DNA of 64,000 bases. Source: a virus. The notes under the pieces are model-generated. The model did no database searches, was not told the origin of the DNA, and saw nothing but the letters and a program-made list of their open reading frames with translations. Positions 32,874 to 62,047 of this stretch are shown piece after piece. The DNA is taken from the IMG/VR virus record IMGVR_UViG_3300034032_000013, positions 1 to 64,000 of that record. One strand, written 5' to 3'. Within the stretch, counting starts at the first letter, position 1. Every line of letters starts with the position of its first letter. The translations under genes and the position numbers were made by a program.

Positions 32874-32897
32874 TTTGCATATGTTAAATAAATTACG

Positions 32898-32905
32898 TAT
32901 CTTTG
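32898..32905 (+). promoter_or_regulatory. Bacteroidota-type -7 promoter box (TAtcTTTG)
   Basis: TAnnTTTG 18 nt upstream of ATG 32924. The same tatctttgtaa core occurs at 17370. Confidence 0.4.
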
Positions 32906-32923
32906 TAAACTTAAATAATAAAA

Positions 32924-35900
32924 ATGGCTTGTAAAAGACAAACAAAAACAAATAGTGCTGATTCAATACTATTTAATACTATTTATGAAAACTTAGCTGA
33001 CCAAAATGAATTGAAAGCTGATGAATTATATAGTTATTTTCATAGTGAAGATTTCATTGAACAATTTGGCAATTATATCCAAGATAGAACGAATGAAACT
33101 ATTCTTGATAGAGTAGATGAAAATGGTGAACCTAAACTTGATTATGATGGTATAGCTAAGAAATATTATTTTGTTGATAAAACTGGAGAGAAAATCTTTT
33201 ACCCTCTTATTAAGAGAGGGTTAAGGTCTCTCTTTGATTATAAACAAATAGAAGCTATAACATCTCAACTTGCTTTAAGCTATTTTAAGACTAATACTAA
33301 CTACGATTTTAATAATATTGATTTCGAGACTGGACAGGAACTTCCTAATCTTACTGAATTTCTTAAACAAAAAATTAAATCTAAGGTTGACGAACTTTCA
33401 CAAACAGGTGATGATAAAGATTTATTTAACTCTATGGATTTAGAGGAAAGTTTAGAACATATTGAAGAATGGAAAGATAATGTAGATGTCTTCTTTAAAA
33501 AGATAGGTCTTAAAAGAAATGATAATGTAGAGGATGAATCTTCCGAGTCTATTGAAGAAATTGAAGAAGATTCTAAAGACCCTGCATTTAATAAAGCATC
33601 ATTTGAAAGAGATACAAAAGATTCTATTTCAACTAATATGAAATTGCGTTTATCTTTACTTACAGATAATAACACAAAAGATACTATTTGGAATGAACCA
33701 CAGTTTGTTAAATTTGATGATATATATTCAACTTTACTTACTGTTTTATCAGACCAAGTTACTATAGGTAATGAAGATATATTTGAAATATATAAACAAG
33801 AGTTGGTAAGAGTGGCTTCTAAGAAACCATTTTTTGACCAACTTGTGTCATTTGTGAATGAACCATCTTTTTCTGAAAATGAAAAAAATGAATTTACTCA
33901 AGCATTTAGATTACATAAAAATAACTTTCTTGTAACTGAATTAAAAAATGATTTTGTTGAAAGTTATGATGAAAATTATCAGATTATTAAATCTGAAGTA
34001 TTTAATCACGTAGTTAAAACAGTATCTAATTCGGGTAATAGAAGTTCAAGATTAATGTCTGATTGGGGTAATAATTTTAAAGCATTATATCAAAATCAAG
34101 ATGGTAGCTTTAAGAAAGATATTTCTGAAAAAATTACTATCATTCAAAGTCAATTAGATGAACTTAATAAGTCATTTAATAATAAATCAACTACACAGGA
34201 CTTTGAATCTGCTGTAAATGAATATGTTCAGATACTTAATAAATTAGGAGTAGAAACTACTGAACTAGGATTTACGCATTATCTTGATTCAGATGGTAGA
34301 AATATTTTTAATCATCAACAACAAATAGTTAGATTAAGTTCTGCAATTGTTAATACTTTAGATGCTGTTAAAAAAATTAAAACTTGGAGTAAAAGAGAAG
34401 TTAATGAGGATAGACTTGACGATAAAGATAATAACGCTAACATATTTATTTCTACTAGACAAAATATCTTTAAACAAATTGCTAATTCTGAAGCTTTCTT
34501 TTTAGGTGAAGGTTCTGATGCTAGTATACATTCGGGTGGTAAAACTAAATGGTTATATTCATATCCATCTTATCTATCTACCAAGATACTTCAGTGGAAG
34601 AAAGATAGAAATACATTATTGGATTTGTATAACAAGTCGGCTTATAATCAAGGTTCTCATTTAATGAAATGGTTACTTGCTAAAGAATTATCTCGAATTG
34701 ATGAAGAAACTGTATCCAAAGAAAGAATTAACTCATTCGAGATGGGTATATTTTCTAACTTACAGGAAGTTGGTGGAGAATCTAAAGCTGGTAGTGAAAT
34801 TTCATTTAATGATTATTTCTTAGACCACGTTAATAAAGTTTTAACGAATGGTTATGTAAGAACTACAACTCCTGCTGATAAGAGTACAGATATTCAATTA
34901 AAAACTGGATTTTTTGAAAATTCGTTTTCTGGATTTAGTAATAATCAAATTCAACTTACAGAATCTACACAAAAGATATTCTTTGAATATTTTAATTCTG
35001 AGTTCAATAGAATGAAAGAAGCTTATAAAGAAATTCAAGCTTATAGGAATAATCCATCTAAATTAACCATTCATTACCACTTTAAAAAAGGTAGTTTTCT
35101 TTATAATGAAGATGGTTCAATTAATCCAAAAGCATTAGGTAATGCATTTAAGTCACAATACTTCCCTAATTTATCATTTGATTCAAAAACAACTAATCCA
35201 TTAGCTATTCAAATTAAGTCATTACTTTATACTAATAGTATACCTAATGAATTTGCAGGAGCTGATTTACGTAATAATCCAAAAGGTGAATTAGATGATA
35301 AAGCTGTTGGTATTAAAACATTAATACAGCAGTATATTAATATAGAATTATCTAATGGTATTATTGAAACAGGTGCAACATTTAGAGCTCAAGGTATATA
35401 TGATATAGCTGAAGATGGTAAAACTATAAATAAGTTAATTAATACCGAAACTTTTAATAAGTACGTAACTAATAAACCTTTAGCAGCTGCTTCAGATTTC
35501 TATATTAATAGTCTTATTCAAAATATTGAATATTCTAAAATGTTTACAGGTGATGTAGCATTTTATAAAGATATGATTGATTATAAGAAACGTGTACCTG
35601 CTACTTATACTGATGGTTTACAATTAAGACTTAAACCAGGTGAAGAAACTTTCAATGTTGCTACAATTAGTAGTGTTGAAATACCATCACCTTTTATGAA
35701 TGAGTTACGTGAAATGATTGGAGATGGAGCTAATGCATATTCTAACATCAACTCTGCTGATGCTCAGGCTTGGATTACTCCTAAACGTTGGAAATTTTTA
35801 GTTGAAAGATTAGGTAAATGGACTCCTGTTCATAATACTCTATATTCTAAGATGATTTCTGATGTTGCTGAACAATACACTGAAGAAGAACTTAAAATTG

Positions 35901-38900
35901 CTGCTCAACCACTTAAAGGTGTATATTTTGATATTAATGGTAAGACTCCTTCATATCTTAAATATTCTCAAGCTGTACTTACTAAGAATTTAGTTAAAGG
36001 TACTGATTTACAAAGAATGTATGATAAAATGGTAGCTCAGGATATTGATGAAGTTATTACTTTAGATGGTTTTAAAGTTGGTTCATCTACTCCTACTACA
36101 ATTCATAACGAAGATGGTACAATTAAAGATGATTTTGATTTTAATATCATTCCGTTATTCAATAGTGGATGGAAACTTCAACAAGATTTACCTACTAAAA
36201 CATTTAAAGAAACTGAAGTAGGTTCTCAAATTCAAAAGAATATCTTTGGTGGTCTTAAATTTAATAGAGATGCTACGTTTATATTAGATGGTCAAGACGT
36301 AACTGGTCAAAATATTATTGATGAAATTACTCAGGTTACAAAATCATTATCAGATATGGGTATGGATTCTTTGAAAAAAGAATTTAATATTGATAATAAT
36401 GGTAAGATTAAAAATGTAAGAGGATTTTACAATTCACTTATATCCGAACTTGAAAAAAGAGGTGGTTCTAAGAATGTTATTGATGCTTTAAAGAAAGAAA
36501 TTACTTTATATGGTGTACCACAAGCTGGTACTAAAATCATAAATGTATTTTCATCTATAATGAACAAACGATTAGTTAAAATTAAGACTAATGGTGGTTC
36601 ATTTATTCAAATGAGTAACTTTGGTCTTAATAAACAAGAAGGTGATAACAGAGGTGTTTTATGGTCTCCTGATGCATTTGATACTACTAATGAACCAACA
36701 CGCTATGTTGATGAAAATGGTAAAGTCAGAATTAGACCAGGTGGTATATTATTATCAGGTAGTTTCATAGCTAAATATATTCCTAATTATAGAGATTATA
36801 CTTCAGAACAATTATTTAATGAAATAATTGATAAAAGAATAACTGAAAATCTAATTGGTTATCGTATTCCTAACCAAGGTTTAGCATCAAATGATGCTTT
36901 ACGTGTTGTAGGTATACTTCCTGAAGAAAATGGTGATACTGTTGTAGCTTATACAGGTATTACTACTAAGACAGGTTCCGATTTTGATATTGATAAAATG
37001 TATTTAATGTTTCCATCATTTACATTACAAAGAACTCAAGAATTTAAAGATGGTAAGTTAGTGTATATAACTGGTAATTCAAAAGAAGGTTTACAAAATA
37101 GACTTATTGAACTTTATCAATCAGTACTTACACATCCTGAAGTTATTAAAGATGTAATGAAACCTATTGATATTGATTTTATAAAGAATTATATCAATCA
37201 TTTACTACCATCTGAAACTAAAGGTACATTAGGTCATTTCAATTCTTATAATGACATAAAACTTCTATATGATTTTAGAGGTGGTAAAGCAGGGGTTGGT
37301 CAGGAAGCTAATGCTGTAGTTGATATTAACCGTCTAGGTCAATTAAGTTTAAATCAAACTTATATTGATTGGGGTCATATGAATGATAGAAGTGAAACTA
37401 TCTTTGATGAAGAATATTCAGTTCCTTTAAGTAAAGCTGATATTGAATACTTTGTTGAAGATATGGAAAAATTCTATAAGTCACAAGGTATGAAATTCGA
37501 TAAACAAGGTTTAATCGAAGAAGTATCTAAAGTTAGAATTGGTGATTCATTAACAGCTATTTTGAATGCATTTGTGGATATTGCAAAAGACCCTTATATT
37601 ACTAGAGGTAACTGGGTAACATCTACAACTAATACAGGTAACTTAATGTTACGTGCAGGAATGCATCCATTATATGTTACTGCATTTATGGCTCAACCTG
37701 TTATTAGAGATTATATTGATTATCAAACAAGTAAAGAATCTATTATTGGTAATAATAGTGGTAATATGAAATTTAAGTTTAAGCAGGATATTGTAATGGA
37801 TAATCTTAAAGATAAAGTTATTGAATATACTACTGATAAAGGTATTGTTACTAGACCCCTTGCACTTATATATAAGTCTTTAATACGTACTGAAAAAGTT
37901 GACCCTTCTACTAAATTAGATGAACAAACAGTAGCTAAGAACTTAGGTTTAAAAAATCCTACAGATGAAGATTTGATAAAAATTAATAAAGCTATTAATA
38001 CTATTATTAAGGAACACGATACTACTTTTAAACTTCAGAACTTTAATTGGTCGAGAGTTACTTTAAAAGATTTTCGTGACCAAATTAAAGATAAAAAAGA
38101 TGGTCCTTTTCAAATGGCTGTCTTTAATAAATTTCAGGAGTTACAGGAGTATAGCAAAGCAATGCGTGAAAATATTAATGTATCCAAATCAGATACATCT
38201 GGTATGGGTAAAAATATTAGTACTGTATACGCTACTGCAAACCAGAAACAATATATATTAGATAAAGAAGTTGGTGCTGAAATGGGTGTCCTTAATGGAT
38301 TTGGAAGTAAATTTGATAATACTGTTTTATCTGCATATTATAATAATGTTATTAATGAAACTATTAAACTTATAACAGCTAATGCTGATTTGTTTCCACA
38401 AGGTACACATCAGGTTCAAAATATGTTTAATGAAGTATCACAAGATTTATATGGTACACCAGCATTTGATACTAAACTAATGACAATCCTTGAAAGAGAA
38501 TACTATAGTTATGCTATGGCTAACTTTTTTGATATTAGTTCTGAAGAATCTATTGATTTAATTACTAAATTACCAAATGAATTTCAAGCATTTAGAAAAG
38601 CTAATCGCCATAAGTATTTAATATTAGATGAATTGGAAATTAAACAAGGTGATAGTCGTATTAAGAAATTTATCAGTTTGAATAATAGAAAGAAATCTCC
38701 TGATTTTGAAGATAGGTTTACAGACTCTTGGAGAGATTTAAGAATTGATAACCCTGAACTAGCTAATAAATTAATTAGGTACTCCTTCCTAACTTCTGGG
38801 TTTAAAATTAACTCTAATCAGTTTTTTACATATATTCCTAATGAATATTTTGTTGAAAATAATATTAATAGATTTATTAAATCTTTCGTTAATACTAATC

Positions 38901-39490
38901 AACAAGATTTCTTGGATAAATTCTATCTAAATAATTACACTGATAAGAAATTTGTACCTAACGTATTTCCTACCCAAAGTATATCATTGGAAAATACTAA
39001 GTTAGAAAATGGTAAGACTTCAAGTAATTTTAGAAGTGGATTTATTATGAATGAACCTGGTAAAGCTAGATATTATACAACTCATTTCTCTAATAAGATG
39101 ATTTATAAATTAGAAGGTTATGATTCTGAAGGTAGAGGTGTATATACTAGAGTTAATCCTTATGGTTATAAAGCAGGAACTAATTACATCAGCGAATATG
39201 GTAATCAATACACAGATAAATTATTTGAAGGTAGAGGTAAACTAGATGTTATTCCTGAACACGTTCAACAACTTAAAAATATGGTAGAAACTTATAGAAG
39301 ATATTCTGAACCATTTGAATTATCATTAGAAGATAATTCTACTAATGATGTTGTAGAAAATCTTTGGAATGAATATAAAGATAATATATTATCAGTTAAT
39401 CCTGATACTACATTAGAAACTTTAAAACAAATGGAAGAAGAATTCGGTACTAAAGAAACTATCGAATTTATAAAAAAATGTAAAGGCTAA
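32924..39490 (+). CDS. virion-packaged RNA polymerase of crAss-like phages (phi14:2 gp66-like)
   Basis: 2188 aa single ORF. It carries the metal-binding DxDxD signature as GSDFDIDKMYLMFPSF (D1353-F-D-I-D1357, nt 36980-36994). Size, motif context and the flanking giant genes match the crAss-like vRNAP. Confidence 0.75.
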   Translation: MACKRQTKTNSADSILFNTIYENLADQNELKADELYSYFHSEDFIEQFGNYIQDRTNETILDRVDENGEPKLDYDGIAKKYYFVDKTGEKIFYPLIKRGLRSLFDYKQIEAITSQLALSYFKTNTNYDFNNIDFETGQELPNLTEFLKQKIKSKVDELSQTGDDKDLFNSMDLEESLEHIEEWKDNVDVFFKKIGLKRNDNVEDESSESIEEIEEDSKDPAFNKASFERDTKDSISTNMKLRLSLLTDNNTKDTIWNEPQFVKFDDIYSTLLTVLSDQVTIGNEDIFEIYKQELVRVASKKPFFDQLVSFVNEPSFSENEKNEFTQAFRLHKNNFLVTELKNDFVESYDENYQIIKSEVFNHVVKTVSNSGNRSSRLMSDWGNNFKALYQNQDGSFKKDISEKITIIQSQLDELNKSFNNKSTTQDFESAVNEYVQILNKLGVETTELGFTHYLDSDGRNIFNHQQQIVRLSSAIVNTLDAVKKIKTWSKREVNEDRLDDKDNNANIFISTRQNIFKQIANSEAFFLGEGSDASIHSGGKTKWLYSYPSYLSTKILQWKKDRNTLLDLYNKSAYNQGSHLMKWLLAKELSRIDEETVSKERINSFEMGIFSNLQEVGGESKAGSEISFNDYFLDHVNKVLTNGYVRTTTPADKSTDIQLKTGFFENSFSGFSNNQIQLTESTQKIFFEYFNSEFNRMKEAYKEIQAYRNNPSKLTIHYHFKKGSFLYNEDGSINPKALGNAFKSQYFPNLSFDSKTTNPLAIQIKSLLYTNSIPNEFAGADLRNNPKGELDDKAVGIKTLIQQYINIELSNGIIETGATFRAQGIYDIAEDGKTINKLINTETFNKYVTNKPLAAASDFYINSLIQNIEYSKMFTGDVAFYKDMIDYKKRVPATYTDGLQLRLKPGEETFNVATISSVEIPSPFMNELREMIGDGANAYSNINSADAQAWITPKRWKFLVERLGKWTPVHNTLYSKMISDVAEQYTEEELKIAAQPLKGVYFDINGKTPSYLKYSQAVLTKNLVKGTDLQRMYDKMVAQDIDEVITLDGFKVGSSTPTTIHNEDGTIKDDFDFNIIPLFNSGWKLQQDLPTKTFKETEVGSQIQKNIFGGLKFNRDATFILDGQDVTGQNIIDEITQVTKSLSDMGMDSLKKEFNIDNNGKIKNVRGFYNSLISELEKRGGSKNVIDALKKEITLYGVPQAGTKIINVFSSIMNKRLVKIKTNGGSFIQMSNFGLNKQEGDNRGVLWSPDAFDTTNEPTRYVDENGKVRIRPGGILLSGSFIAKYIPNYRDYTSEQLFNEIIDKRITENLIGYRIPNQGLASNDALRVVGILPEENGDTVVAYTGITTKTGSDFDIDKMYLMFPSFTLQRTQEFKDGKLVYITGNSKEGLQNRLIELYQSVLTHPEVIKDVMKPIDIDFIKNYINHLLPSETKGTLGHFNSYNDIKLLYDFRGGKAGVGQEANAVVDINRLGQLSLNQTYIDWGHMNDRSETIFDEEYSVPLSKADIEYFVEDMEKFYKSQGMKFDKQGLIEEVSKVRIGDSLTAILNAFVDIAKDPYITRGNWVTSTTNTGNLMLRAGMHPLYVTAFMAQPVIRDYIDYQTSKESIIGNNSGNMKFKFKQDIVMDNLKDKVIEYTTDKGIVTRPLALIYKSLIRTEKVDPSTKLDEQTVAKNLGLKNPTDEDLIKINKAINTIIKEHDTTFKLQNFNWSRVTLKDFRDQIKDKKDGPFQMAVFNKFQELQEYSKAMRENINVSKSDTSGMGKNISTVYATANQKQYILDKEVGAEMGVLNGFGSKFDNTVLSAYYNNVINETIKLITANADLFPQGTHQVQNMFNEVSQDLYGTPAFDTKLMTILEREYYSYAMANFFDISSEESIDLITKLPNEFQAFRKANRHKYLILDELEIKQGDSRIKKFISLNNRKKSPDFEDRFTDSWRDLRIDNPELANKLIRYSFLTSGFKINSNQFFTYIPNEYFVENNINRFIKSFVNTNQQDFLDKFYLNNYTDKKFVPNVFPTQSISLENTKLENGKTSSNFRSGFIMNEPGKARYYTTHFSNKMIYKLEGYDSEGRGVYTRVNPYGYKAGTNYISEYGNQYTDKLFEGRGKLDVIPEHVQQLKNMVETYRRYSEPFELSLEDNSTNDVVENLWNEYKDNILSVNPDTTLETLKQMEEEFGTKETIEFIKKCKG

Positions 39491-42400
39491 TGAATTGTAT
39501 AAATAAAAATACACAAGAATTTAAAACGTTGTTGGAAGCTACTAAGCTTCCTTCAATTGTTTTAGAAATGAGAATAAGTAAATGGCAGGAAAATAATGGA
39601 TTAGATAGTTATCCTAGTACAGAAGATATACAACATCCTAGTGAAGTCAATTTTACTTTGAAAGCTGTTAATATATTAACTTCTGATAAAGGTAAAGAAA
39701 TCTTTGAAAAAGGTAAGAAAGCTGGTTGGGATTTGAATAAAATTCTTACTGAACTACAAGTACCTAAAGAACAGAAACAACTTCTATTAGATTTAAGTAT
39801 TACTGATAGAGAACAACTTGCTGTAGAATTAGCTGCTACTTATAGTTATAGTGTTAACATTAATACTACTCAAAAATTTGATTTAGAACCTGGTCAAGAA
39901 CCTGATATTGATTATGAAATAATAGAAGATGAGGATGGGATGCCAATTGAAATGAGACCTTTTTCAACTACACCTATAGTCAATACTAAATACTATTCAA
40001 ATCTAACAGTTCCAGGTGGTACTAACTACACGGAACAGGAAATATCTACTCCACTAATTACTCCTTCTATTAAAGGTCACGCTCAATTTGCTACTGATAA
40101 AGGAATTGGATGGTTCAGAAGTGATGAACAAGCTGGTGAAAAGATTGGACCTGGTTATGAAAATGGATTAATGGATGAAAATGGAAAGATTATAAATTCT
40201 TCTGTTTATAAAAATATTGATTCTAAAACTCGTAGAATACTTGAAGTACAATCTGATTTATTTCAAAAAGGTAGAGATAAGGTTAATTTAGTTGGGTTAA
40301 AATCTGATTTGAATTCACAAGAAGAAGATTCTTTCCAAAGACATTTATTAGAAACTGGACAAATCACACAAGAAGAATTTAATAATCCACCTATTATAGA
40401 ATCTTTATTTAAAGAAAATCAGTTTTTACAACTTTTAAATAAAGATTCTAATTGGGTTACATTCTTTATTAAATCTATTATTCAAGATTCTGCTAAGAAA
40501 GGTTATGAGAAAGTTCTATTTCCGTCTGGTAATACTGCTAGTAAAGTTGAAGGTCATGAAACATTAGAAAACTTTGTTGAACAAAAACAAAGTAGAATAA
40601 ATTATCTTGAAGAAAAGAAAAAAGGTGAAATTGAATGGGTAGTTGAAGAAGCTGGTGGTGAAGAATATAAATTTAGTACAGAAAATGATGCTAATAATTT
40701 TTTAAATAGTAAAGAATTTAGTGAGGAATTCTCGAAACCTACACAATATACCAAGAGTGGTGAATATTTAGGTGATATTGATAGAGAAATAAATCAACTA
40801 ACTCAAGAAATTAAAAATGTAAGAACTGATGGTTTATCTGCTTTAAAACCTATTTACGATTTTTATGAAAATAAAGTTCAAAATATAATTAAAAAACAAG
40901 GTTACAATCCTACTCGAACTACAGATGAACATGGTAATGATTGGTTTGAAATAACTATTGATAATACTCGTGATACTTCAACTATATTTGCTAAGAAAAT
41001 AGAAGATTTAATAGACCCAAATTCTGAAAATATATTCCCTAATGAGTCTAATATAAGAAGTTCTGTAATTCCTGATTATTCAGCTGAACATAGTAGAATA
41101 CTATTTAATAATAAACAAGGTAAAATTACTGTAGATGAAATATTAGAAAATATTTTAAATAACTTTAATGATTTAAGTCCAAAAGGTCGTGAATTAATTG
41201 AAAAATCTCGAAGATTAGTTGGTAGAACTGGAGCTAAATTTAAATTTATATCGGATGCTAAGTTAATTAGTAAAAATACATTAATGCAAATCGATGGTAA
41301 TACTAATACTATTGAAATTAATAGAGATAGACTTAAAAATTTTAGACCTAGTCTTGTAGTAGAATCGTTTATACATGAAGTAGTTCATGCTCAGAGTATA
41401 CAGGCTTTAATGAATCCTCAAACTTTTGAAGAAAAAGAATTTAAGAGATTGATTGACGATAAATATAGAACTTACCTTGATAGACAAGTTGATAAAGAGC
41501 TAGATAGGATTGGTAACTATCATCCAGATTTACAAAGTTATGGTTTTACGAATGAAAAAGAATTTGTAGCTGAGATATATGCTAATGCAGCATTTAGAGA
41601 AGAATTAAGACAACTTGATAAAGAAAATAATACTTCATTCTGGAAACAATTTATCGAAGCTGTAAGACGTTTATTTGGAATAGCTAAATCTACTGAAGCT
41701 AATGACCTTATTGAACAAGTTGTTGACTTTGTTGAACAGGATAGACGAGATTATCAGGGTATGAATCTTCAAAGAAAACTTATATTTGCTAAAAAAACAG
41801 TAGAAATTCCTAATTTAACTAGTCTAGCTGAAAGATTAATAAATCTTTCCAATAAAGCTAAAGATAGGATGGACCAAGCTTATAAAAGAGCTCAAAATAA
41901 TAGAGATATTAGTCCTGAGAAAAGAGCTGAAAATTTAAAAGATATTCAAACTGTAATTGATGAAATGGCATCTTTTGATGATATTAATCAATGGAAAGTT
42001 ATTACATCATATACACAATCATTAGCTGATAAAGTTAATAGTCTTAAAGTTTCTTTTGAGAAAAAAGATGTTACACACGATGGTTTGATTAAGATGATTA
42101 ATAACTATGAAGATTATTTATCATCTTATGATTTACTTCCTGGTATTCAACAATTAATTGGAGAAGCTAGACGTGAACAATTATCTGAAGAAGATTTAAA
42201 AGATGTTAATGAACTTGATAATATTATTAGAACTTTTGAAGGTAATCATTCAAGGTTATTAGTTGATTTTAAGGTTGCAAAAGAGGCTCAAAGTATTGAA
42301 ATACTTTCTGACCCTAGATTTAACACTAAAGTAGAAACTGATAATCGTATTCGTTTACAAAAAGAATATCGTGATTTAAAAATAACTGGTGAATCTATGA

Positions 42401-44964
42401 GTGAATATGTATCTCGTATGATGAATACAAGAGATGCTGCTCGTATTAAAGAAGAGCTTCATACTTCTGCATTAGAATTAATTAATAATCCTTCGTTTGA
42501 TATTAGTAAAATGGAAGGAATGTTATATGATAGTACTAATACTAATAGTAGACTTATTCAAATTGTAATGAATATTATATCTAGTGTTAGAGAGAAAGTA
42601 ATATCACGATTTAATGCTAAAAATGCTGAATTAGGTAAACTTTATAAAGATTTCATTAATGAAAAAGGTAATCCTAGACCATCTGAATTGTATAAAAATA
42701 TGTATGAACAAGATGCTCAAGGTAATTATTATTTAAAAGGTGAATATAAAGTTGAATTTAGAGATAAATATATTAATGAATTTCTACCTTTAAATAAAGC
42801 GTTCTTTGAAGTACAAAAAAGATTTAAAGAAGAAGGTTTTTCTTTTTATGACTATAATACATTTCCTGAATTTATTAAAGTTAGAGATGCTCGTCGAAAA
42901 TGGTTGAAAGAAAATACTATTAAAGATGCATCTGATATTACTAAAAAGGCTTGGTTACCTCATCCTAAATATAAAAATAAAGATTTAACAGGTACTGAAG
43001 CTAGAGTATTATCTGAATTTAGAAATATTACTATTGATTCTGACCAAAATACAGGTGGTAAAAGAAGTCTTATTCGTAAAATTGATAATAAAGGTAATAA
43101 ATTATTTTTCTTTAAATTACCTGCACATTCTAAAACTGATTTTGAAAGACGATTAGAAGTTGATGTTAAAGGTTTAACTAAAGATAAATGGACTGATTTA
43201 ACTACAATTAAAGCAGATGATATTGGTTATGCTTATGGTGAAGCAATTGACTCAAAGAATGAGACTCTTAAATCTGTTAAAGTACATTTTAGAGGTAAAA
43301 TTGACCCTACTGAACAATCATTAGATTTAATGACAATGTATCGTTATGAGTTTTTAAATGGTGTAAACTATGCTGAAAAAAGTAAAGAAGAATTAACTCT
43401 AAATCTTTTAGCTGATATTTCTAAAAATAAAAGTTATATTAAACGTTCTAACAGGTCAGGTCTTGCAATGATGAATGTATTTGCTAAACGTGAACCACTT
43501 ACAACCTATGATGGTGAATTTTCACAAGAATATAAACGTATTCAAGGTATTATAGAAAGTAATATTTATGATATTACAAGTTATGCTGGTGGTAAATTAG
43601 GACCGTTAGATGTTAATAAACTTTCTAGTGCAATTAGTGGATATACAGCACAGGTATCAATGATATTTAATGCTGGTACAGGTGTAGCTAACGTTTTAAA
43701 CGGTACTACGCAATTATTTATAGAGTCACTAGGTAGTAAGTTCATTACTAAAAAATCGTTGCTTAAAGCTGAAGCTAAGTATAATGCTGACCTTCCTCAA
43801 ATTATGTCTGATTTAAGTAATCCACATAAGACTTCATTTACTAATCAAGTATTAAGAATGTTTGATACATTTGGTGGTTTCTCACCAGAACAACAAACTT
43901 TTCTTAAAAATACAATTGCTAGAAAATTAGGTTCTACTGAAAGTTTAAATGCTTTTCAAGAGATGGGTGAACATATGATGAATTCAGTTCTTACTATGGG
44001 TGTATTAGATACACTTAAAGTAATGAATGAAAATCATCAATTCATTGACAAAGATGGTAATGTTGTTGAAGAATCTAAAGCTGCATCATTACTTGATATG
44101 TTGAAACGTGATAGTCAAGGTGAACTTTATATGGATGAAAAGGTAGCGTATACTAATCATAATATGAATGTTAAATATCATAAAGGTGGTAAAGTACACG
44201 TTAATCTTCTTATTAAAAAGAAAAGTCACGATTTATTTGGTGTATATGACCCTAATTTCCAAAATGAGTTATATAAAACTTGGTATGGTAAAGCTATAAT
44301 GATGTTTAAGAAGTTCTTTATAGCAGGTGCTCAATACAGATATAAAGGTTTCCAAACATCTACTAAATCTAAAGAAGAATTATCTGATGAGGATTTAATT
44401 TATAACTCTGCTATCAAGGAATATGATGAAGGTGTTTATACATCACTTATTAGATTTTTTGCTCAAGGTGTAATACCAACTCTTAAAAATCTTAGTTTAT
44501 CTTATACAAAAGATTATTATAATAATATGACTGATTTTGAAAGAGCTAACTTACGTAAAGCTACAGCAGAGATTCTTGCAACATCTATATTAATTCCAGC
44601 AATTGGTATGTTATTAGCGGCAGCAGGTGGTGAAGATGATGACGATAAACTATGGTTTTGGATATATCAAACTCGTAGATTGGAATCTGAACTTTCACAA
44701 TTTAGGAATATTATTGAAGCAGGACGTTTAATTCAAAATCCTATTGCAGGAGTTAGAACTATTCAAAATGCTACAGGTTTCTTATATGAAGTGTTAACAC
44801 CACTTAACTTTATGCCTGATGATAAAGAAAATTTCTTCTCTTATTTAGATGAAAATTCTAAAGGTGAAAATATCCTTTGGAAGAAAACTAAAAAGATGAC
44901 TCCTATTATTAGTCAATGGGATAAAGATTATCAGACAATGCATAACTTTATTAATAAAAAGTAA
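39490..44964 (+). CDS. giant polyvalent virion protein with zincin metallopeptidase motif
   Basis: 1824 aa. HExxH is present as SFIHEVVHAQS (H629-H633, nt 41374-41388), with acidic EFVAEIYANAAF about 60 aa downstream. There is a C-terminal TM-like segment ILATSILIPAIGMLLAAAGG. TAATG overlap with the RNAP gene. Confidence 0.5.
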   Translation: MNCINKNTQEFKTLLEATKLPSIVLEMRISKWQENNGLDSYPSTEDIQHPSEVNFTLKAVNILTSDKGKEIFEKGKKAGWDLNKILTELQVPKEQKQLLLDLSITDREQLAVELAATYSYSVNINTTQKFDLEPGQEPDIDYEIIEDEDGMPIEMRPFSTTPIVNTKYYSNLTVPGGTNYTEQEISTPLITPSIKGHAQFATDKGIGWFRSDEQAGEKIGPGYENGLMDENGKIINSSVYKNIDSKTRRILEVQSDLFQKGRDKVNLVGLKSDLNSQEEDSFQRHLLETGQITQEEFNNPPIIESLFKENQFLQLLNKDSNWVTFFIKSIIQDSAKKGYEKVLFPSGNTASKVEGHETLENFVEQKQSRINYLEEKKKGEIEWVVEEAGGEEYKFSTENDANNFLNSKEFSEEFSKPTQYTKSGEYLGDIDREINQLTQEIKNVRTDGLSALKPIYDFYENKVQNIIKKQGYNPTRTTDEHGNDWFEITIDNTRDTSTIFAKKIEDLIDPNSENIFPNESNIRSSVIPDYSAEHSRILFNNKQGKITVDEILENILNNFNDLSPKGRELIEKSRRLVGRTGAKFKFISDAKLISKNTLMQIDGNTNTIEINRDRLKNFRPSLVVESFIHEVVHAQSIQALMNPQTFEEKEFKRLIDDKYRTYLDRQVDKELDRIGNYHPDLQSYGFTNEKEFVAEIYANAAFREELRQLDKENNTSFWKQFIEAVRRLFGIAKSTEANDLIEQVVDFVEQDRRDYQGMNLQRKLIFAKKTVEIPNLTSLAERLINLSNKAKDRMDQAYKRAQNNRDISPEKRAENLKDIQTVIDEMASFDDINQWKVITSYTQSLADKVNSLKVSFEKKDVTHDGLIKMINNYEDYLSSYDLLPGIQQLIGEARREQLSEEDLKDVNELDNIIRTFEGNHSRLLVDFKVAKEAQSIEILSDPRFNTKVETDNRIRLQKEYRDLKITGESMSEYVSRMMNTRDAARIKEELHTSALELINNPSFDISKMEGMLYDSTNTNSRLIQIVMNIISSVREKVISRFNAKNAELGKLYKDFINEKGNPRPSELYKNMYEQDAQGNYYLKGEYKVEFRDKYINEFLPLNKAFFEVQKRFKEEGFSFYDYNTFPEFIKVRDARRKWLKENTIKDASDITKKAWLPHPKYKNKDLTGTEARVLSEFRNITIDSDQNTGGKRSLIRKIDNKGNKLFFFKLPAHSKTDFERRLEVDVKGLTKDKWTDLTTIKADDIGYAYGEAIDSKNETLKSVKVHFRGKIDPTEQSLDLMTMYRYEFLNGVNYAEKSKEELTLNLLADISKNKSYIKRSNRSGLAMMNVFAKREPLTTYDGEFSQEYKRIQGIIESNIYDITSYAGGKLGPLDVNKLSSAISGYTAQVSMIFNAGTGVANVLNGTTQLFIESLGSKFITKKSLLKAEAKYNADLPQIMSDLSNPHKTSFTNQVLRMFDTFGGFSPEQQTFLKNTIARKLGSTESLNAFQEMGEHMMNSVLTMGVLDTLKVMNENHQFIDKDGNVVEESKAASLLDMLKRDSQGELYMDEKVAYTNHNMNVKYHKGGKVHVNLLIKKKSHDLFGVYDPNFQNELYKTWYGKAIMMFKKFFIAGAQYRYKGFQTSTKSKEELSDEDLIYNSAIKEYDEGVYTSLIRFFAQGVIPTLKNLSLSYTKDYYNNMTDFERANLRKATAEILATSILIPAIGMLLAAAGGEDDDDKLWFWIYQTRRLESELSQFRNIIEAGRLIQNPIAGVRTIQNATGFLYEVLTPLNFMPDDKENFFSYLDENSKGENILWKKTKKMTPIISQWDKDYQTMHNFINKK

Positions 44965-45014: not shown

Positions 45015-45296
45015 TTAAATCAATTCTGTAGCTTGAAATGTCTCAACAAAACTTTCTACCAATTTTGCGTGGTACGTTTTCTTTGTAGGCATTTGAGGTT
45101 CTTTACCTCTTAATATAGCATACGCTATAAATAAGTGCATAAGTCTCTCAGAATTACTAACAGTCACACACGATGCTGTATAAGCATCAACAGTTCTATT
45201 ACCTGTAAAGTAAACAGTTTTTCTCTGAGGTTTCAATTCAGTCTGTTCTTTAGATAATCTTTTAATCTCTTCTACAATCTTATGGAATCTTCTCAT
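45015..45296 (-). CDS. hypothetical protein
   Basis: 93 aa. ATGA overlap with the upstream PTH2-like gene. Confidence 0.6.
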   Translation of the reverse strand: MRRFHKIVEEIKRLSKEQTELKPQRKTVYFTGNRTVDAYTASCVTVSNSERLMHLFIAYAILRGKEPQMPTKKTYHAKLVESFVETFQATELI

Positions 45297-45634
45297 GATA
45301 ATGTTAAATTTAAGTTTTTAAATAATTTCTTGTGCAAATCCTCAGGAATTGCTTGAATCGTTATAGATGTAATTTCATTACCAATGTCAGGTTCTTCAAA
45401 TACAGTATACTTAATTCTTAAATCATCTAGTTTGGAAATCATAATATTCATCTTTAATTTAGAAGTTTCTAAACAACAAAGGTAATTTGATTGTAATTCC
45501 CAGTCCTTAAATTCAGGTCCATGTCTAGCTGCAAACTCAGCTAATCCATGACATGATTGAACCACTTTGTAACCAGAAGAGATGTCTTCTCGAACAATGA
45601 TGGTGAGTTTATCACCTTTTCTAATCTACGTCAT
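45293..45634 (-). CDS. PTH2-like (peptidyl-tRNA hydrolase 2 fold) protein with in-frame TAG at codon 3
   Basis: The track ORF starts at GTG 45565. The frame continues upstream as ATG ACG TAG ATT AGA AAA GGT GAT AAA CTC ACC ATC ATT GTT CGA GAA GAC..., which encodes KLTIIVREDISSGYKVVQSCHG. That matches the PTH2 N-terminal pattern (hydrophobic strand-VRxDL-xxG-K-xxAQ-xxHA). There is no ATG, GTG or TTG between the TAG and 45565. Confidence 0.45.
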
Positions 45635-45654
45635 AATAACAAATTTAATGTTAG

Positions 45655-45726
45655 CGACCTGTATGGGACTCGAACCCATAACCTGCGGTTTTAGAGACCG
45701 CTGCTCTACCATTGAGCTAACAAGTC
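45655..45726 (-). tRNA. amber suppressor tRNA, anticodon CUA (tRNA-Trp-like body)
   Basis: Minus-strand sequence GACTTGT-TA-GCTC-AATGGTA-GAGC-A-GCGGT-CTCTAAA-ACCGC-AGGTT-ATGGG-TTCGAGT-CCCAT-ACAGGTC-G. It has a 7-bp acceptor stem, 4-bp D stem, 5-bp anticodon stem and 5-bp T stem, with a TTCGAGT T-loop. In the anticodon loop C-U-[CUA]-A-A, U33 and A37 are in place. No CCA is encoded. Confidence 0.85.
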
Positions 45727-45752
45727 TTTTGGGAGAAATTAATCTCCCATTT

Positions 45753-53988: not shown

Positions 53989-54420
53989 TTATTTTCCTGT
54001 TGAACCAAATCCACCGTTTCCACGGTCAGTATTATCAAGCTCGTCTACTTCTTCAAATTCCATTTGTGGTACTGGTAGAATTACAATTTGTGCAACTCTC
54101 TCTCCCACTTGATATTCCACACTATGTGGAACAGTTTTAAATCGAAGCATTACTTCTCCTCGATAATTTGAATCTACTACTCCAATCGAATTAGCCAATA
54201 TATGACCTGTTTTAGATACTGAACTTCTTGGAAAAAGTAATCCAACATATCCTTCAGGTATTTCCATTGCTAACCCTGTACCAAATTCGGTATAACCATA
54301 TGAACCTGTATCTACAACTTTTTTAGTAGTTGCAGTTAAATCCATACCTGCATCACCTTGTAATGCGTAACTAGGTGTTACGGCTTTTTCATCTAACTTC
54401 TTAAACTTTACTTTTAACAA
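53989..54420 (-). CDS. dut: dUTP diphosphatase (trimeric dUTPase)
   Basis: Motifs AGMDL, GVVDSNYRGE and a C-terminal RGNGGFGSTG. Confidence 0.9.
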   Translation of the reverse strand: MLKVKFKKLDEKAVTPSYALQGDAGMDLTATTKKVVDTGSYGYTEFGTGLAMEIPEGYVGLLFPRSSVSKTGHILANSIGVVDSNYRGEVMLRFKTVPHSVEYQVGERVAQIVILPVPQMEFEEVDELDNTDRGNGGFGSTGK

Positions 54421-54988
54421 ACTCTTCTATTTTAAATGTTTCATATTCTTGTTCAACATACTCTCCAAGTTCCTGATTTACATCAAGAACAACTTTATGC
54501 TCTTTTGAACTAAGTTCCTTTTCAATTTTTTCTTTTAATTTTGGTGATTTGTATAATATATCTTTTACTTTTTGTAAAAAAGGAATACCTAGTGTATTTC
54601 CTGAATAAACTTGACCCCAGAAATCTAATATCAATTGTTTAGCGTCTTCTCCAAATTTGGAATATTGGCTATTGTAAAGATATGCGTATTCATTTAGGTA
54701 TTCTTCAGGAAATCTAAAGATGTATATTACCTTGTTATCCAAATCTATATGCTTAACAAACAATGGGTTATTAGTTAACTTATGTTCGTAAGCAGTAAAA
54801 TCTGGATTCTTAAATGAAAATTCGTGCAATATATAAAAACAATTCTGCAATTCAGGGTCTTCCCCAAACATATAAGTATTGATTAAATATGGCATAAACT
54901 TTATATCAAGAGATAGCACCTGAGCTATCAACGGTAATAAATAAGTCTTTGACTTATTATATCTAGGTTTCATTATTTTATCACTCAT
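54401..54988 (-). CDS. hypothetical protein
   Basis: 195 aa ORF, overlapping its neighbours at both ends. Confidence 0.6.
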   Translation of the reverse strand: MSDKIMKPRYNKSKTYLLPLIAQVLSLDIKFMPYLINTYMFGEDPELQNCFYILHEFSFKNPDFTAYEHKLTNNPLFVKHIDLDNKVIYIFRFPEEYLNEYAYLYNSQYSKFGEDAKQLILDFWGQVYSGNTLGIPFLQKVKDILYKSPKLKEKIEKELSSKEHKVVLDVNQELGEYVEQEYETFKIEEFVKSKV

Positions 54989-56711: not shown

Positions 56712-57406
56712 TCTATTAATTCTTTATGGTAATGATGAACATACTTATCTAAATCATAAAATATTCTTGAGTCTTTTGGTAAAACAATTTCGTCGTTTGA
56801 AAAGATTTTATGTTTCTTTTCATCTATAAATTGCTTATAATAATTACAAGTATTATCAAGAAATACAAAAGCAATATTTTGATGTGTAAGATTAATATGT
56901 TTTATCACAAACCTTGTGAAATGAGCCCAACATTTATGGTGAGAATTATGAAATTCTGATGTTAGACTCGTATTTAACATTAAACAACCTTGTTCCGCCC
57001 AACTTTCTAAAGTATAATCAAATGTTTTCTTATTATCCTGATACTTATAAGTAGTATTTTCAACACACGTTTTAATGTTATTAAGAGCAGGTGGTATCAT
57101 TATAGTATCTTCTGCTACTCCATATGCCAGTCCATTAGACTTCAAATTAGAATAAGGTTGTTTACCTATAAATATTACCTTTAATTCATCATATTTACAC
57201 ATACGAAATGCCCTGAATACATCATCTTTATCACAAGGATAAATCTGTTCAGGAGATGCATATTTTTGATTTATAAACCACGCTAAATTATCCATATAAC
57301 GTTGAATTATAATCTGTATCAAAGGTTGTGCCCAAGTACCTAGTTCATCGCTGTAATTAACCTTTAAACCAGTCTTATCTATTGGATTGATGTGTTCTAC
57401 TACCAT
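56705..57406 (-). CDS. degenerate UDG-fold protein (catalytic residues lost)
   Basis: Collinear with family-1 UDG: IGKQPY (vs GQDPY, Asp to Gln), NGLAYGV, PPALNNI, MLNTSLT, NSHHKCWAHFT, FVFLDNT. It lacks the C-terminal HPSP-type His motif. TAATG overlap with the amidoligase gene. Ends in TAG. Confidence 0.6.
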   Translation of the reverse strand: MVVEHINPIDKTGLKVNYSDELGTWAQPLIQIIIQRYMDNLAWFINQKYASPEQIYPCDKDDVFRAFRMCKYDELKVIFIGKQPYSNLKSNGLAYGVAEDTIMIPPALNNIKTCVENTTYKYQDNKKTFDYTLESWAEQGCLMLNTSLTSEFHNSHHKCWAHFTRFVIKHINLTHQNIAFVFLDNTCNYYKQFIDEKKHKIFSNDEIVLPKDSRIFYDLDKYVHHYHKELIEW

Positions 57407-59256
57407 TATACCATTTCCTCATTAGATTCTTTAATAGGGTCAACAAATTCTAAATCTTGTTTGATAGCATTTGCTTTCGATTGATTATGTAAATGTAACA
57501 TAGCATCATCAAGCATTTGTTTTGATAAATTTACATATGATTTAGAATTTGAATAAGTAGAATTATATATCATATTTTTATGTGCACCTTCATCCATTTT
57601 ATCTGTCCAAACTTTTGTTACAAGTTCTACTTCGGCAATTGGATTAATAGTTATAGGCGCAGATATATAATCATCTTCCTGCATAGATACTTTAGGAGCA
57701 GATTGTTTTGCACGTTTTATCTCTTTTAAATTTATAGGAATATGAATATCCCTTTTATTAAAATCAAGATATTTTGAAACACGAATATGCTCCTCTTTAC
57801 CGATAATATCTCCTCTACAATTATTAGATTCAGTCACCTGTTTCCTAACACTTAAATAGTCATCCATACACATAATTATACTATCTCTATTGGATACATT
57901 GGAAGTATTTAAATACTCTGTAATAATACGACGTAAATCTTTACCATATAAAAAATTCTTGTTTTCAAGAATATTTTTCTGATACTTTTTAGTAAAGTTA
58001 ACCAAGATTGCTGACATTAATATAAATGGAACAATTTTATTTACCTCATAAGTTGGAGTATGTATTCTAAATTCAACAGTTGTTTTGTTACCAAATATCA
58101 ACGGAATTAAATTATGAATGTAATACCTTGTATGAATATTCCACTTTTGATTGTTATTTGGGTCAGAAGGGTGAACTTTTACTTTATCTAAATCATTATT
58201 ATATGCAGCAAAAGGTTGTCCTTGTGATAAATATTCAAATAAAACATTAAAGTTTTCATTAATATTTTCACGAGTAATTATAGCATCCATTCTACTTAAT
58301 AAATCAAATATAGGATATGGTTTAGAATAATTTTTATTCTTAACTTTAAAATTATATTTTTTATATAAAGGAAACATTTGATACATATCATCTTGTACAA
58401 GACAAGTTAATTTAAAAAATGCAAGAATGAATTCTTTTGTTCTAGGAACATTTCCAATATGTAAGTGTAAAGAACAAGTATTATCATAAACAGTTCGTTC
58501 CTTTAAAGGTTCCAACATATCGACTACTGTTTGTAACCCTTTTTCTCCTGAAAGTGGTATAGTTACATATTCTATACCACTTATACTTCCATCTCGTAAA
58601 GGTATTAATCCCACTTTGTTCAAAATTCTATCAGGAATAAATCCTCTAGTAGTTTCAAACTCCAAACCAAAAGATACATCTTCTAAAATTGGAGCATAGG
58701 TTTTAACAACATTACTTATTCTACTTTCATAAAATTTATTATACTTCTCTGTAAAAGCATCAGTAATCCCTCTTGAGTCATAAGGTAGAGATGTTTTATA
58801 CTCTTGTGAAGGTATAATTATTTTATTAAAAGCATTTGCAGGCAATCTTTTAATGTGATAGTATATACCTGATGATAGTTCTTCACGATATTCTCTATTA
58901 TTTTCCAACAATTTCTCGTCTAAAATATAATAGTGTTCACCATTTTCTAAACCTATTTCAGCTTTACCTTCCGCATCAAAATGCCCAAAAATAGGTTGAT
59001 TATTTTCAAAACCAACAATACCATTTACTAGGTTATTTTTATTCATTGTATATTCTTTTGTACTGTGGTTAAAAACGATATTACCAGTTTCGGCTCGATA
59101 ACAACTTTTATTAATAATGTAACAATCTCCTGAATTCTCTTCATTGGTATTACCTATTTTGTAATATCCTGTTGGAAATTTTCTACATTGTGATATTGGT
59201 AATTTCTCGCCTTTAATAGTAATTACTTCTTTTTGCTTACTCATTTTCTTTTTCAT
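57406..59256 (-). CDS. amidoligase (glutamine-synthetase-fold COOH-NH2 ligase, Amidoligase_2-like)
   Basis: 616 aa. Core: FGLEFETTRG ... DGSISGIEYVTIPLSG ... CSLHLHIGN. Confidence 0.65.
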   Translation of the reverse strand: MKKKMSKQKEVITIKGEKLPISQCRKFPTGYYKIGNTNEENSGDCYIINKSCYRAETGNIVFNHSTKEYTMNKNNLVNGIVGFENNQPIFGHFDAEGKAEIGLENGEHYYILDEKLLENNREYREELSSGIYYHIKRLPANAFNKIIIPSQEYKTSLPYDSRGITDAFTEKYNKFYESRISNVVKTYAPILEDVSFGLEFETTRGFIPDRILNKVGLIPLRDGSISGIEYVTIPLSGEKGLQTVVDMLEPLKERTVYDNTCSLHLHIGNVPRTKEFILAFFKLTCLVQDDMYQMFPLYKKYNFKVKNKNYSKPYPIFDLLSRMDAIITRENINENFNVLFEYLSQGQPFAAYNNDLDKVKVHPSDPNNNQKWNIHTRYYIHNLIPLIFGNKTTVEFRIHTPTYEVNKIVPFILMSAILVNFTKKYQKNILENKNFLYGKDLRRIITEYLNTSNVSNRDSIIMCMDDYLSVRKQVTESNNCRGDIIGKEEHIRVSKYLDFNKRDIHIPINLKEIKRAKQSAPKVSMQEDDYISAPITINPIAEVELVTKVWTDKMDEGAHKNMIYNSTYSNSKSYVNLSKQMLDDAMLHLHNQSKANAIKQDLEFVDPIKESNEEMV

Positions 59257-61186: not shown

Positions 61187-61210
61187 TTATTTTTATATTT
61201 TTAATTATTT

Positions 61211-62029
61211 TTAAGCCACTTGTAGTGAATATTCACCAATTTTCTCTAATAATTCTATTGCTAAAGATTTATTATTTTCGTTAATTGCTTTAACAATCTG
61301 TTCAGAATATTTATCACTTAATTCATCAACCAATCCTGAATTTACAAGATTAATTGCTTCATAAGTAGTATTCCAAGCCCAAGCTATTAGTTCGTCTGTT
61401 GCAATCCAGAAATTTGATGGTGTACGATACTCCATACCATATGGTTTAAATCTGAAACAACCAGCTTTACCATACAACTCTTTACGTCTATCATCTTTAT
61501 CTAATGCTAAAGACTTCAAGCCTACAGTCATATCCATCGCTTTAACTAATCGTTCCACTGTTTCATCAGCTTCTTCCATAGTCATTTCAGATTTATCAAA
61601 CCCAATATGAATATGACCACCTGCACTTCGCATATTACTTTCAGCATTTGGTGGTTCATTCATACCTTGAGTATAAACATTAAAATCAGGGTCACACCCA
61701 AATTCTTTAGCTTTATCAGAATCCAATTCTTTTTCAGCTAATATAGCAGATGCTGAATAATTAGGTTTACAACCCATTGCAGCAGTGATAATAGTCAAAT
61801 GGTTTTTTACGAAATTGATACTTTCAGTAAATTCTTCAACTGTTTTAGCAGGTGGAATACAAAATTCCATTAACACATTATCTTCTTGGATAGCGTGTCC
61901 TTTTTCACTAATAGGTTTTGGTTCATCTTTACTACCACCAATTAGACCAATTGCTGATACAATTTCTCCATCTCTTTCTAAGAACAATTCTGGGTCACAA
62001 CCAAGTGTGATATTATTAATTTTTTTCAT
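61211..62029 (-). CDS. phage-type COOH-NH2 ligase (type 2, GCS2/glutamine-synthetase fold)
   Basis: 272 aa: GCDPELFL ... QEDNVLMEFCIPP ... AGGHIHIGF ... YRTPSN. It resembles the phiEco32-like amidoligase family, recalled from memory. Confidence 0.5.
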   Translation of the reverse strand: MKKINNITLGCDPELFLERDGEIVSAIGLIGGSKDEPKPISEKGHAIQEDNVLMEFCIPPAKTVEEFTESINFVKNHLTIITAAMGCKPNYSASAILAEKELDSDKAKEFGCDPDFNVYTQGMNEPPNAESNMRSAGGHIHIGFDKSEMTMEEADETVERLVKAMDMTVGLKSLALDKDDRRKELYGKAGCFRFKPYGMEYRTPSNFWIATDELIAWAWNTTYEAINLVNSGLVDELSDKYSEQIVKAINENNKSLAIELLEKIGEYSLQVA

Positions 62030-62047
62030 TTTTTATAATTTTTAAAT

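Follow-up and report, generated by a model that had tools for sequence, protein, structure and literature searches.

We analyzed a 64,000-nucleotide (nt) stretch of viral DNA (IMG/VR record IMGVR_UViG_3300034032_000013, positions 1 to 64,000; hereafter the window, to which coordinates refer unless another sequence is named). One region of its minus strand, 45015-45726 (-), carries a tRNA gene with the amber-suppressor anticodon CUA, a short open reading frame (ORF) that meets TAG at its third codon and continues in the same frame into a protein resembling PTH2-type peptidyl-tRNA hydrolases, and an overlapping ORF for a second small protein. The evidence makes it likely that this region is a natural suppressor-gated tRNA/hydrolase cassette, composed of the tRNA(CUA), a PTH2-like gene with UAG as codon 3 and a coupled, helical partner protein of ~93 amino acids (aa).

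Organization of the Locus

The tRNA(CUA) gene was located by ARAGORN at 45654-45726 (-), with no CCA encoded. The Rfam tRNA model RF00005 matches at 45655-45726 with 72.5 bits, compared with a gathering score of 29, indicating an intact cloverleaf. The body of this tRNA is similar to those of phage tRNA-Trp and tRNA-Sup genes, and it is the sole tRNA found by ARAGORN in the 64-kb window, with none in the 8.3 kb further left (L116). Between its 3′ end and the ATG of the PTH2-like gene lies an AU-rich spacer without a Shine-Dalgarno (SD) sequence, 45635-45653 (-), which is 19 nt long with the tRNA end given by ARAGORN and 20 nt with that given by Rfam. The leader, 45629-45634 (-), consists of this ATG (45634-45632) and one sense codon, ACG, and thus encodes Met-Thr. 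It is followed by the in-frame TAG at 45626-45628 (-), codon 3, here called the gate codon, with a purine (A) as the next base. The body of the PTH2-fold hydrolase-like ORF, 45293-45625 (-), comprises 110 codons and a TGA (45295-45293), so that full read-through from ATG 45634 yields a product of 113 aa.

Past the TAG the codons are ATT AGA AAA GGT GAT AAA CTC ACC ATC ATT GTT CGA GAA GAC ATC TCT TCT GGT TAC AAA, then GTG 45565, and from the TAG to this GTG the frame contains no ATG, GTG or TTG. Both the mechanical ORF list and the public gene call P0001 (90 aa) start at GTG 45565. The arrangement described in the original prediction, namely a tRNA(CUA), a 19- to 20-nt gap, ATG ACG TAG and, behind it, an open frame devoid of further starts up to GTG 45565, was confirmed in the sequence in each of its parts.

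The Read-Through Product Is Predicted to Fold as a PTH2-Type Hydrolase

The original prediction had likened the extended product to PTH2-type peptidyl-tRNA hydrolases, and both profile and structure comparisons support this likeness. The extended product matches Pfam PF01981 (PTH2) with an E value of 3.9e-4 and 21.1 bits, the match spanning residues 6-107 of the product and positions 2-114 of the 115-position profile, and two close homologues bear a precomputed PF01981 match. In PHROGs it matches phrog_1866, a function-unknown family (E 3e-11, residues 1-110), while the profile of the family matches PDB entry 24bt, "peptidyl-tRNA hydrolase" (E 7.5e-6). The AlphaFold2 model of the 113-aa product has a predicted local distance difference test (pLDDT) score of 91.1 and a predicted template modeling (pTM) score of 0.85, with β1 formed by residues 6-12 and α1 by residues 17-34. 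The 15 best Foldseek matches of the model in the PDB are all Pth2/Bit1 proteins except one PTH2-fold protein of unknown function. Their query-normalised template modeling (TM) scores are 0.61-0.80, and 14 of the 15 have E values of 1.7e-7 to 4.9e-4 and TM scores of 0.70-0.80. The modeling therefore predicts with high confidence that the read-through product folds as a PTH2-type hydrolase. It also agrees with the argument, made from the sequence alone in the original prediction, that a core element would be lost with a GTG start. Because the GTG codon corresponds to residue 21, initiation at 45565 would be expected to delete β1 and the start of α1, and the GTG-start version has no PTH2 match in Pfam.

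The catalytic residues of S. solfataricus Pth2 are reportedly, from the work of Fromant et al. 2005, the Lys of the GK motif and the Asp and Thr of DAGxT. Aligned to PDB 24bt, the window protein has Tyr in place of the canonical Lys, with a Lys one residue later, and E-P-D opposite DAG, which preserves an acidic residue. It lacks the Thr at D+4 but retains the Q..H pair and a strand Thr. The window protein thus shares with Pth2 (S. solfataricus 1XTY and human PTRH2/Bit1 1Q7S) the overall fold, the helix-1 Q..H, the acidic residue at DAG and the strand Thr, but differs in that GK..AQ..H is changed to GYK.VQS.H and DAGxT to E-P-D-I-G. The Lys is shifted or absent in distant family members, and the phage family has acquired new invariant residues, SNYLCC and HK..FK. 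By homology, the enzyme would hydrolyze the ester of peptidyl- or N-acyl-aminoacyl-tRNA. A scan of 185,579 bacterial and archaeal genomes with the conserved motif, in which cellular homologues or prophages were sought, did not detect the family.

The Early In-Frame Stop Is Conserved across the Family

A viral scan with the single window protein as query gave no match, and an alignment query was needed to find relatives. Protein searches combined with contig look-ups, viral and metagenome scans, and tblastn searches of GenBank phages produced a first set of 33 distinct loci with 31-79% protein identity (the close loci). All 33 show the same arrangement, in which an ATG is followed by 1-9 sense codons, an in-frame stop (codons 2-10) and then the conserved domain. 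The stop is TAG in 29 of the loci, TAA in 3 and TGA in 1, and a purine occupies the +4 position in 33/33. Family-wide, the stop is single and lies within the first ~10 codons, the exception being LR756501 (L044), in which a second in-frame TAG is present at codon 37, within the domain. In many close loci the spacer between tRNA and ATG is 17-22 nt long and carries the motif CTAAC[AC]TT(T)AAAT.

The close loci include four huge phages (LR745206 and LR756500-502) as well as the cultured Tenacibaculum phage pT24 (L035/L048; LC168164, ~194,090-195,036), whose gene begins ATG AAA TAG ATA and is preceded by a tRNA-Sup(CUA), BPT24_227, 2.5 kb upstream. The annotated pT24 coding sequence, BPT24_235, begins ~100 nt inside the PTH2-like domain, that is, too far downstream, and the pT24 protein bears a C-terminal extension of ~170 aa that is absent from the window protein. 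LR756501 is a 735-kb phage with two tandem tRNA(CUA) genes 2.4 kb downstream of its PTH2-like gene. As a negative control we used the dUTPase gene of the same window, and its 67 homologues have an ordinary start at the domain start and no early stop.

A second IMG/VR scan, centred on the distant member P0090, confirmed 358 loci, of which 80 were kept, 66 of them distinct. Of these 66, 44 are gated (43 by TAG and 1 by TAA), with a mean G+C content of 0.36, while the 22 ungated loci have a mean G+C content of 0.54 and many of them encode a basic N-terminal extension. Gating is the usual state in AT-rich phages. Taking both sets together, the early stop has been kept in 77 distinct loci, though one C-for-T change would abolish it. 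The conservation of ATG-NNN-TAG, which the original prediction had put forward for examination, holds in part: the early stop and its association with a suppressor tRNA are conserved, but the leader varies from 1 to 9 codons and is not fixed at one.

The PTH2-Like Family Is Linked to Suppressor tRNAs

A suppressor-like tRNA is present within 1.5 kb of the PTH2-like gene in 48/63 loci, compared with 1/67 dUTPase control loci. Indeed, 55 of the 75 tRNAs found within this distance are suppressor-like, and all suppressor-like tRNAs (70/70) are on the same strand as the PTH2-like gene. The linkage extends to ungated loci, 19/22 of which have a neighboring suppressor-like tRNA. For example, a CUA tRNA lies 33 nt downstream of the gene in L119, and in L120 a tRNA (3345-3419) with an eight-base anticodon loop containing UCA lies 9 nt downstream. 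In Mycobacterium cluster C phages a CUA tRNA, annotated as tRNA-Ser in Myrna, is located 130-250 nt downstream of the gene. Because the ungated members also adjoin suppressor tRNAs, the enzyme and the suppressor tRNA appear to be partners in function, irrespective of gating.

The tRNAs themselves are diverse. The closest relative of the window locus (L001, 79% protein identity) has a tRNA(CUA) at 2819-2890, 20 nt upstream of its ATG, whose D arm, anticodon stem and T arm differ strongly from those of the window tRNA. The decoder tRNA may thus be fast-evolving or may have been exchanged for another, its anticodon and location being preserved. In two TAA-gated loci, L031 (3789-3862) and L033, a tRNA whose anticodon loop is unusual (GUUUUAGU or UUUUAG) is found ~790 nt downstream; the loop includes UUA, and ARAGORN assigned no anticodon. 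Among the ungated loci of higher G+C, L120 and several of L123-L137 contain downstream tRNA-like genes with 8- or 6-base anticodon loops harboring UCA, reported by ARAGORN as "ttca" or "tc", and these may be opal suppressors with unusual loops.

The Gate Stop Is Probably Decoded by the Phage tRNA

The stop codon and the nearby anticodon covary. In the two sets combined, TAG is paired with CUA in 60 loci and with UUA in 1, while TAA is paired with UUA in 3 and with CUA in none (Fisher p = 9.6e-5). The single TAG/UUA case may possibly be explained by U34 wobble. L165 (TAG, CUA) and L166 (TAA, UUA) have near-identical N-terminal regions.

The sequence past the stop also has the properties of coding DNA. 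For the 19 codons directly past the stop in 15 aligned loci, the entropies at the three codon positions are 16.9, 8.6 and 26.2, and synonymous changes make up 39% of codon differences in frame, as against 14% and 7% out of frame. In these 15 loci the first residue past the stop is Ile or Val, encoded by ATT, GTA or GTG, and the codon there is more varied over all 33 close loci. The use of several codons for Ile or Val points to selection on the amino acid rather than on start-codon function. The second TAG of LR756501 lies inside the domain. It is possible that TAG serves more generally as a sense codon in this phage. The original prediction held that the 113-aa product is made through decoding of UAG by the neighboring tRNA, and this proposal is backed by conservation of the stop, its covariation with the anticodon, the coding signature and the LR756501 TAG. 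From this sequence evidence, we consider it likely that the gate stop is decoded by the phage tRNA.

Several observations weigh against this interpretation. The bodies of the suppressor tRNAs differ between loci. For the TGA-gated locus (L028), a UCA tRNA was not found within 6 kb, and in some other gated loci the DNA examined lacks a suppressor tRNA, either because the contigs are short or because the tRNA is perhaps further off. In about two-thirds of the 33 close loci (~21/33), ATT, ATA, GTG or ATG directly follows the stop, such that some initiation or reinitiation at this position is conceivable; in L046 an ATG stands right behind the TAG. The GTG annotated as the start in Mycobacterium cluster C phages stands directly past ATG-TAG or GTG-TAG, with an SD spacing that favors it. 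With regard to the enzyme, the 21.1 bits of the window product fall just under the PF01981 cut-off of 23 bits, and because the canonical Lys and DAGxT are altered as well, enzymatic activity is uncertain. Finally, some outside function must exist, because a suppressor serving only the hydrolase, and a hydrolase serving only the suppressor, would form a closed loop.

The initiation-related observations bear on an alternative in which the ATG, leader and stop form a tiny upstream ORF and the hydrolase is produced by termination-reinitiation or by direct initiation at the next codon (ATT 45625 in the window); the suppressor tRNA would then lie nearby only because the enzyme acts on it, and not as a decoder of the stop. 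In addition to the start-like codons just described, which include GTG in L031 and L045, this alternative draws on the mycobacteriophages IkeLoa (L037, ~1974-1982) and Myrna (L041, ~2474-2482), in which the GTG start of an annotated "peptidyl tRNA hydrolase" is preceded by ATG TAG or GTG TAG, and where such initiation may contribute in some lineages. The ungated members that adjoin suppressor tRNAs likewise fit with it. However, a non-start codon (GTA, GTT, ACA, AGT or AAA) follows the stop in 12/33 loci, the Ile or Val position appears to be selected for its amino acid, and reinitiation does not require the observed covariation between stop and anticodon. Nor could reinitiation bypass the mid-domain TAG of LR756501. 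In addition, initiation factor 3 (IF3) discriminates against AUU and AUA as start codons. On balance, we judge this alternative to be unlikely.

The same data speak to whether the gene is simply a pseudogene created by a nonsense mutation, or whether its real product is the 90-aa protein initiated at GTG 45565. The shorter product is indeed what automatic callers give (P0001), and 37 of the best 150 representatives in the protein search described below are similarly truncated. Yet the stop has been kept in 77 diverged loci and the codons past it are under purifying selection, while the 90-aa version loses β1, the start of α1 and the PTH2 match, and the GTG is not conserved, other codons being found at its position in homologues. 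Either possibility is therefore hard to credit. Decoding of the gate stop by the suppressor tRNA remains the reading that we favor.

The Window Phage Uses the Standard Genetic Code

With Cellulophaga phage phi14:2 the window phage shares 62% identity in the major capsid protein, which also matches the Pfam family Crass_capsid, and neighboring genes match Pfam crAss families. The source is thus an environmental crAss-like phage, presumably with a Bacteroidota host. An SD-like motif precedes only 3/47 window genes, a scarcity that fits such a host. As recoded crAss-like relatives are known in the literature, and since the window has a G+C content of 29.6% and TAA predominates among its stop codons, TAG might be read as sense throughout the genome, as happens under code 15 in Lak and certain crAss-like phages, with the early TAG being one of many. 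The data make this very improbable. ORFs cover 0.97 of the window when it is read with the standard code, and counting TAG as sense brings this to 0.98, whereas the same change takes Lak megaphage controls from 0.53 to 0.83 and from 0.33 to 0.79, gains of 0.3-0.46. TAG terminates 4/54 window genes and 3/13 genes in the 8.3 kb to the left, 7 in total, and no other gene among these 54 and 13 needs read-through. In the family, moreover, the stop is a single one near the start of the gene (LR756501 excepted) and is TAA where the anticodon is UUA. The same holds for pT24, in which coverage over 45 kb around the gene is 0.87 vs 0.88 with TAG as sense, indicating the standard code. The window phage, then, uses the standard code, and because no other gene needs read-through, its tRNA(CUA) has one evident client in the ~72 kb examined. 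Tandem backup stops are not enriched after TAG-terminated genes, and TAA-terminated genes behave the same, with a median of 3 codons to the next stop.

The dUTPase gene, 53989-54420 (-), was considered as a second amber-gated gene and rejected. The region 53989-54444 lacks a usable ATG and contains ATG AAA CAT TTA AAA TAG, with the TAG two codons before TTG 54420. The 67 homologues have ordinary starts, mostly ATG, and because those in L086-L091 begin "MLKVKFKKL" with ATG at the position of the TTG, we assign the dUTPase gene a plain TTG start.

A Model for Suppressor-Gated Expression

In the mechanism that we propose, a leftward transcript would span the tRNA and then both ORFs. The G+C-rich hairpin at 45730-45749 (+) has a T-run behind it on the plus strand. 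Because no T-run follows it on the minus strand, leftward transcription could pass from upstream genes into the tRNA and cassette. Host enzymes would free the tRNA and add CCA, while ribosomes would initiate at AUG 45634, read ACG and reach the UAG. With no charged tRNA(CUA), release factor 1 would terminate translation after the dipeptide, giving no hydrolase and little partner; with charged phage tRNA(CUA), the UAG would be decoded and the 113-aa enzyme produced. Ribosomes terminating at TGA 45293 would then restart at the overlapping ATG of the partner. Because only read-through would yield the enzyme and its partner, the output would report suppressor activity, that is, the competition between charged suppressor tRNA and release factor. 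The tRNA would serve as a translational key and the stop codon as the lock of a tRNA-related enzyme module.

As to what the enzyme does, we prefer the idea that it copes with an after-effect of suppression, for example drop-off or stalled peptidyl-tRNA at contested stops, so that it would be needed, or could be tolerated, only while the suppressor acts. Alternatively, the enzyme might act as a feedback "governor" that limits suppression. A more far-reaching idea, which we put forward tentatively and regard as rather doubtful, is that the cassette is a self-contained, horizontally mobile switch, whose output reads the balance of suppressor and release factor and whose enzyme acts back on suppressor-dependent translation by clearing or limiting peptidyl- or aminoacyl-tRNA(CUA). 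If true, such a switch would be a natural counterpart of the autoregulation of release factor 2 (RF2) and of engineered amber logic gates, and it could let standard-code phages carry suppressor tRNAs safely, providing a stepping stone to full recoding.

Comparison with Known Systems

The release factor 2 gene, prfB, contains an early in-frame UGA that is escaped by a +1 frameshift, and its product acts on that stop. In prfB, as in the proposed cassette, an early stop in a translation-related gene senses termination versus continued decoding; in the cassette, however, the frame is unchanged and a dedicated tRNA would decode the stop. Engineered amber logic gates combine the supD tRNA with an amber-containing T7 RNA polymerase, and expression in these gates, as proposed here, needs both the mRNA and the suppressor tRNA. 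Unlike them, the cassette appears to be natural and widespread, and its parts are kept adjacent. The original prediction had also compared the unsuppressed leader to the lambda bar minigenes (AUG-AUA-stop). In the window the leader is indeed a two-codon ORF beside a Pth-type function, but the resemblance is formal only. The leader length (1-9 sense codons) and codon identity vary across the family and there is no sign of toxicity or tRNA sequestration, so the data do not support a minigene as a general feature; a leader of 1-9 sense codons fits a gate, not a specific minigene.

Phage stop-codon recoding by suppressor tRNAs is well described and involves many late genes per genome (10.1101/2021.08.26.457843; PMC9523058; PMC7886860). 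The window locus resembles such code-15 phages (Lak, crAss-like), in which TAG is read as Gln, in that a phage tRNA(CUA) would decode an in-frame TAG in a host that keeps the standard code, G+C content is low, TAG terminators are few and suppression would gate expression. In contrast to them, the window phage is a standard-code phage with one gated gene, the stop is single and early, and the tRNA is attached to the gene. The gated gene is tRNA-hydrolase-like rather than structural or lytic, and the design also exists as TAA with tRNA(UUA). PTH2 genes, located in tRNA-rich regions of phage genomes, have been noted in jumbo phages in a paper that mentions neither an in-frame stop nor any connection with suppressor tRNAs (PMC7824862). 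We found no prior description of a suppressor-gated PTH2-like cassette in the full-text literature, in which not all journals are covered, in agreement with the earlier impression that such an arrangement had not been described.

Suppressor tRNAs are frequently annotated in standard-code phages, and their targets have been reported as unidentified. The authors of the XacN1 genome could not identify the genes targeted by its tRNA(CUA) (PMC5852040), and those of phiKp24 left the role of its suppressor tRNA open (PMC8386662). The PTH2-like gene would be the first concrete, conserved and computationally findable client for the suppressor tRNAs of standard-code phages. As a natural example of gene expression gated by a tRNA, it may offer insight into the ways in which phages tolerate, tune or evolve towards stop-codon reassignment, and the question is directly testable in culturable systems, namely pT24 on Tenacibaculum and the Mycobacterium cluster C phages.

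The Early Stop Distorts Database Entries for the Family

A profile search of 1.84 billion representative proteins returned 1,736 clusters at 50% identity. Among the best 150 of these 1,736 clusters, 37 are gene calls truncated at the N-terminus, and 51 of the 106 members with a short leader carry Q in it, typically as "Q[IV]". The entry P0011, "MKQVTKGDK", has the same sequence as L018, "ATG AAA TAG GTA ACC". Because TAG was read as Q in gene calling, homologues whose sequences begin "MTQ..." or "MKQ..." do not independently support Gln, and Gln as the inserted residue, considered from these homologues, was rejected as an artefact of code-15 gene calling. Many deposited entries (e.g., P0002, P0006, P0011, P0021 and P0031) contain a Q that is really a TAG read with code 15, and many others are truncated by code 11, so the database N-termini of the PTH2-like family are unreliable. 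In all, the affected gene calls, either cut short or given a silent Q, number in the hundreds, pT24 BPT24_235 being one example.

The Partner Protein

The partner ORF, 45015-45296 (-), encodes 93 aa and its ATG overlaps the hydrolase stop (ATGA). The same 4-nt overlap is present in most close loci, and the partner occurs in a subset of the distant set. Given that the partner ATG overlaps the hydrolase stop, translation of the partner is probably coupled to read-through. The AlphaFold2 model of the partner contains three helices (pLDDT 86). No fold or family match was found for it in Pfam, PHROG or the PDB; a weak match to GapR (E 0.024) was disregarded.

A partner-related protein (hhalign probability 84%) is encoded in Stenotrophomonas phage DLP_5 (L118, 5874-6343), directly upstream of a tRNA-Sup(CTA). 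No PTH2-like gene is present in the 13 kb of DLP_5 examined. Just ahead of the partner-related gene, in another frame, is an SD-driven mini-ORF, ATG AAG TAG.

Other Features of the Window

A hairpin, GGTGA-TAAAC-TCACC, is located 9 nt past the gate TAG at 45602-45616 (-), and was considered as a stimulator of read-through. It was rejected because GGTGA-N5-TCACC is limited to one subclade, which encodes GD.[LI]T, and is missing from other gated loci, thus tracking the G-D-x-L/I-T codons. The hairpin is probably a by-product of these codons, and possibly a minor context element. Elsewhere in the window, an amidoligase- and glutamine-amidotransferase-like gene cluster occupies 57406-63067 (-). 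Past the structural genes, at 28317-44964 (+), are three giant ORFs of 1518, 2188 and 1824 aa, as is usual for crAss-like phages.

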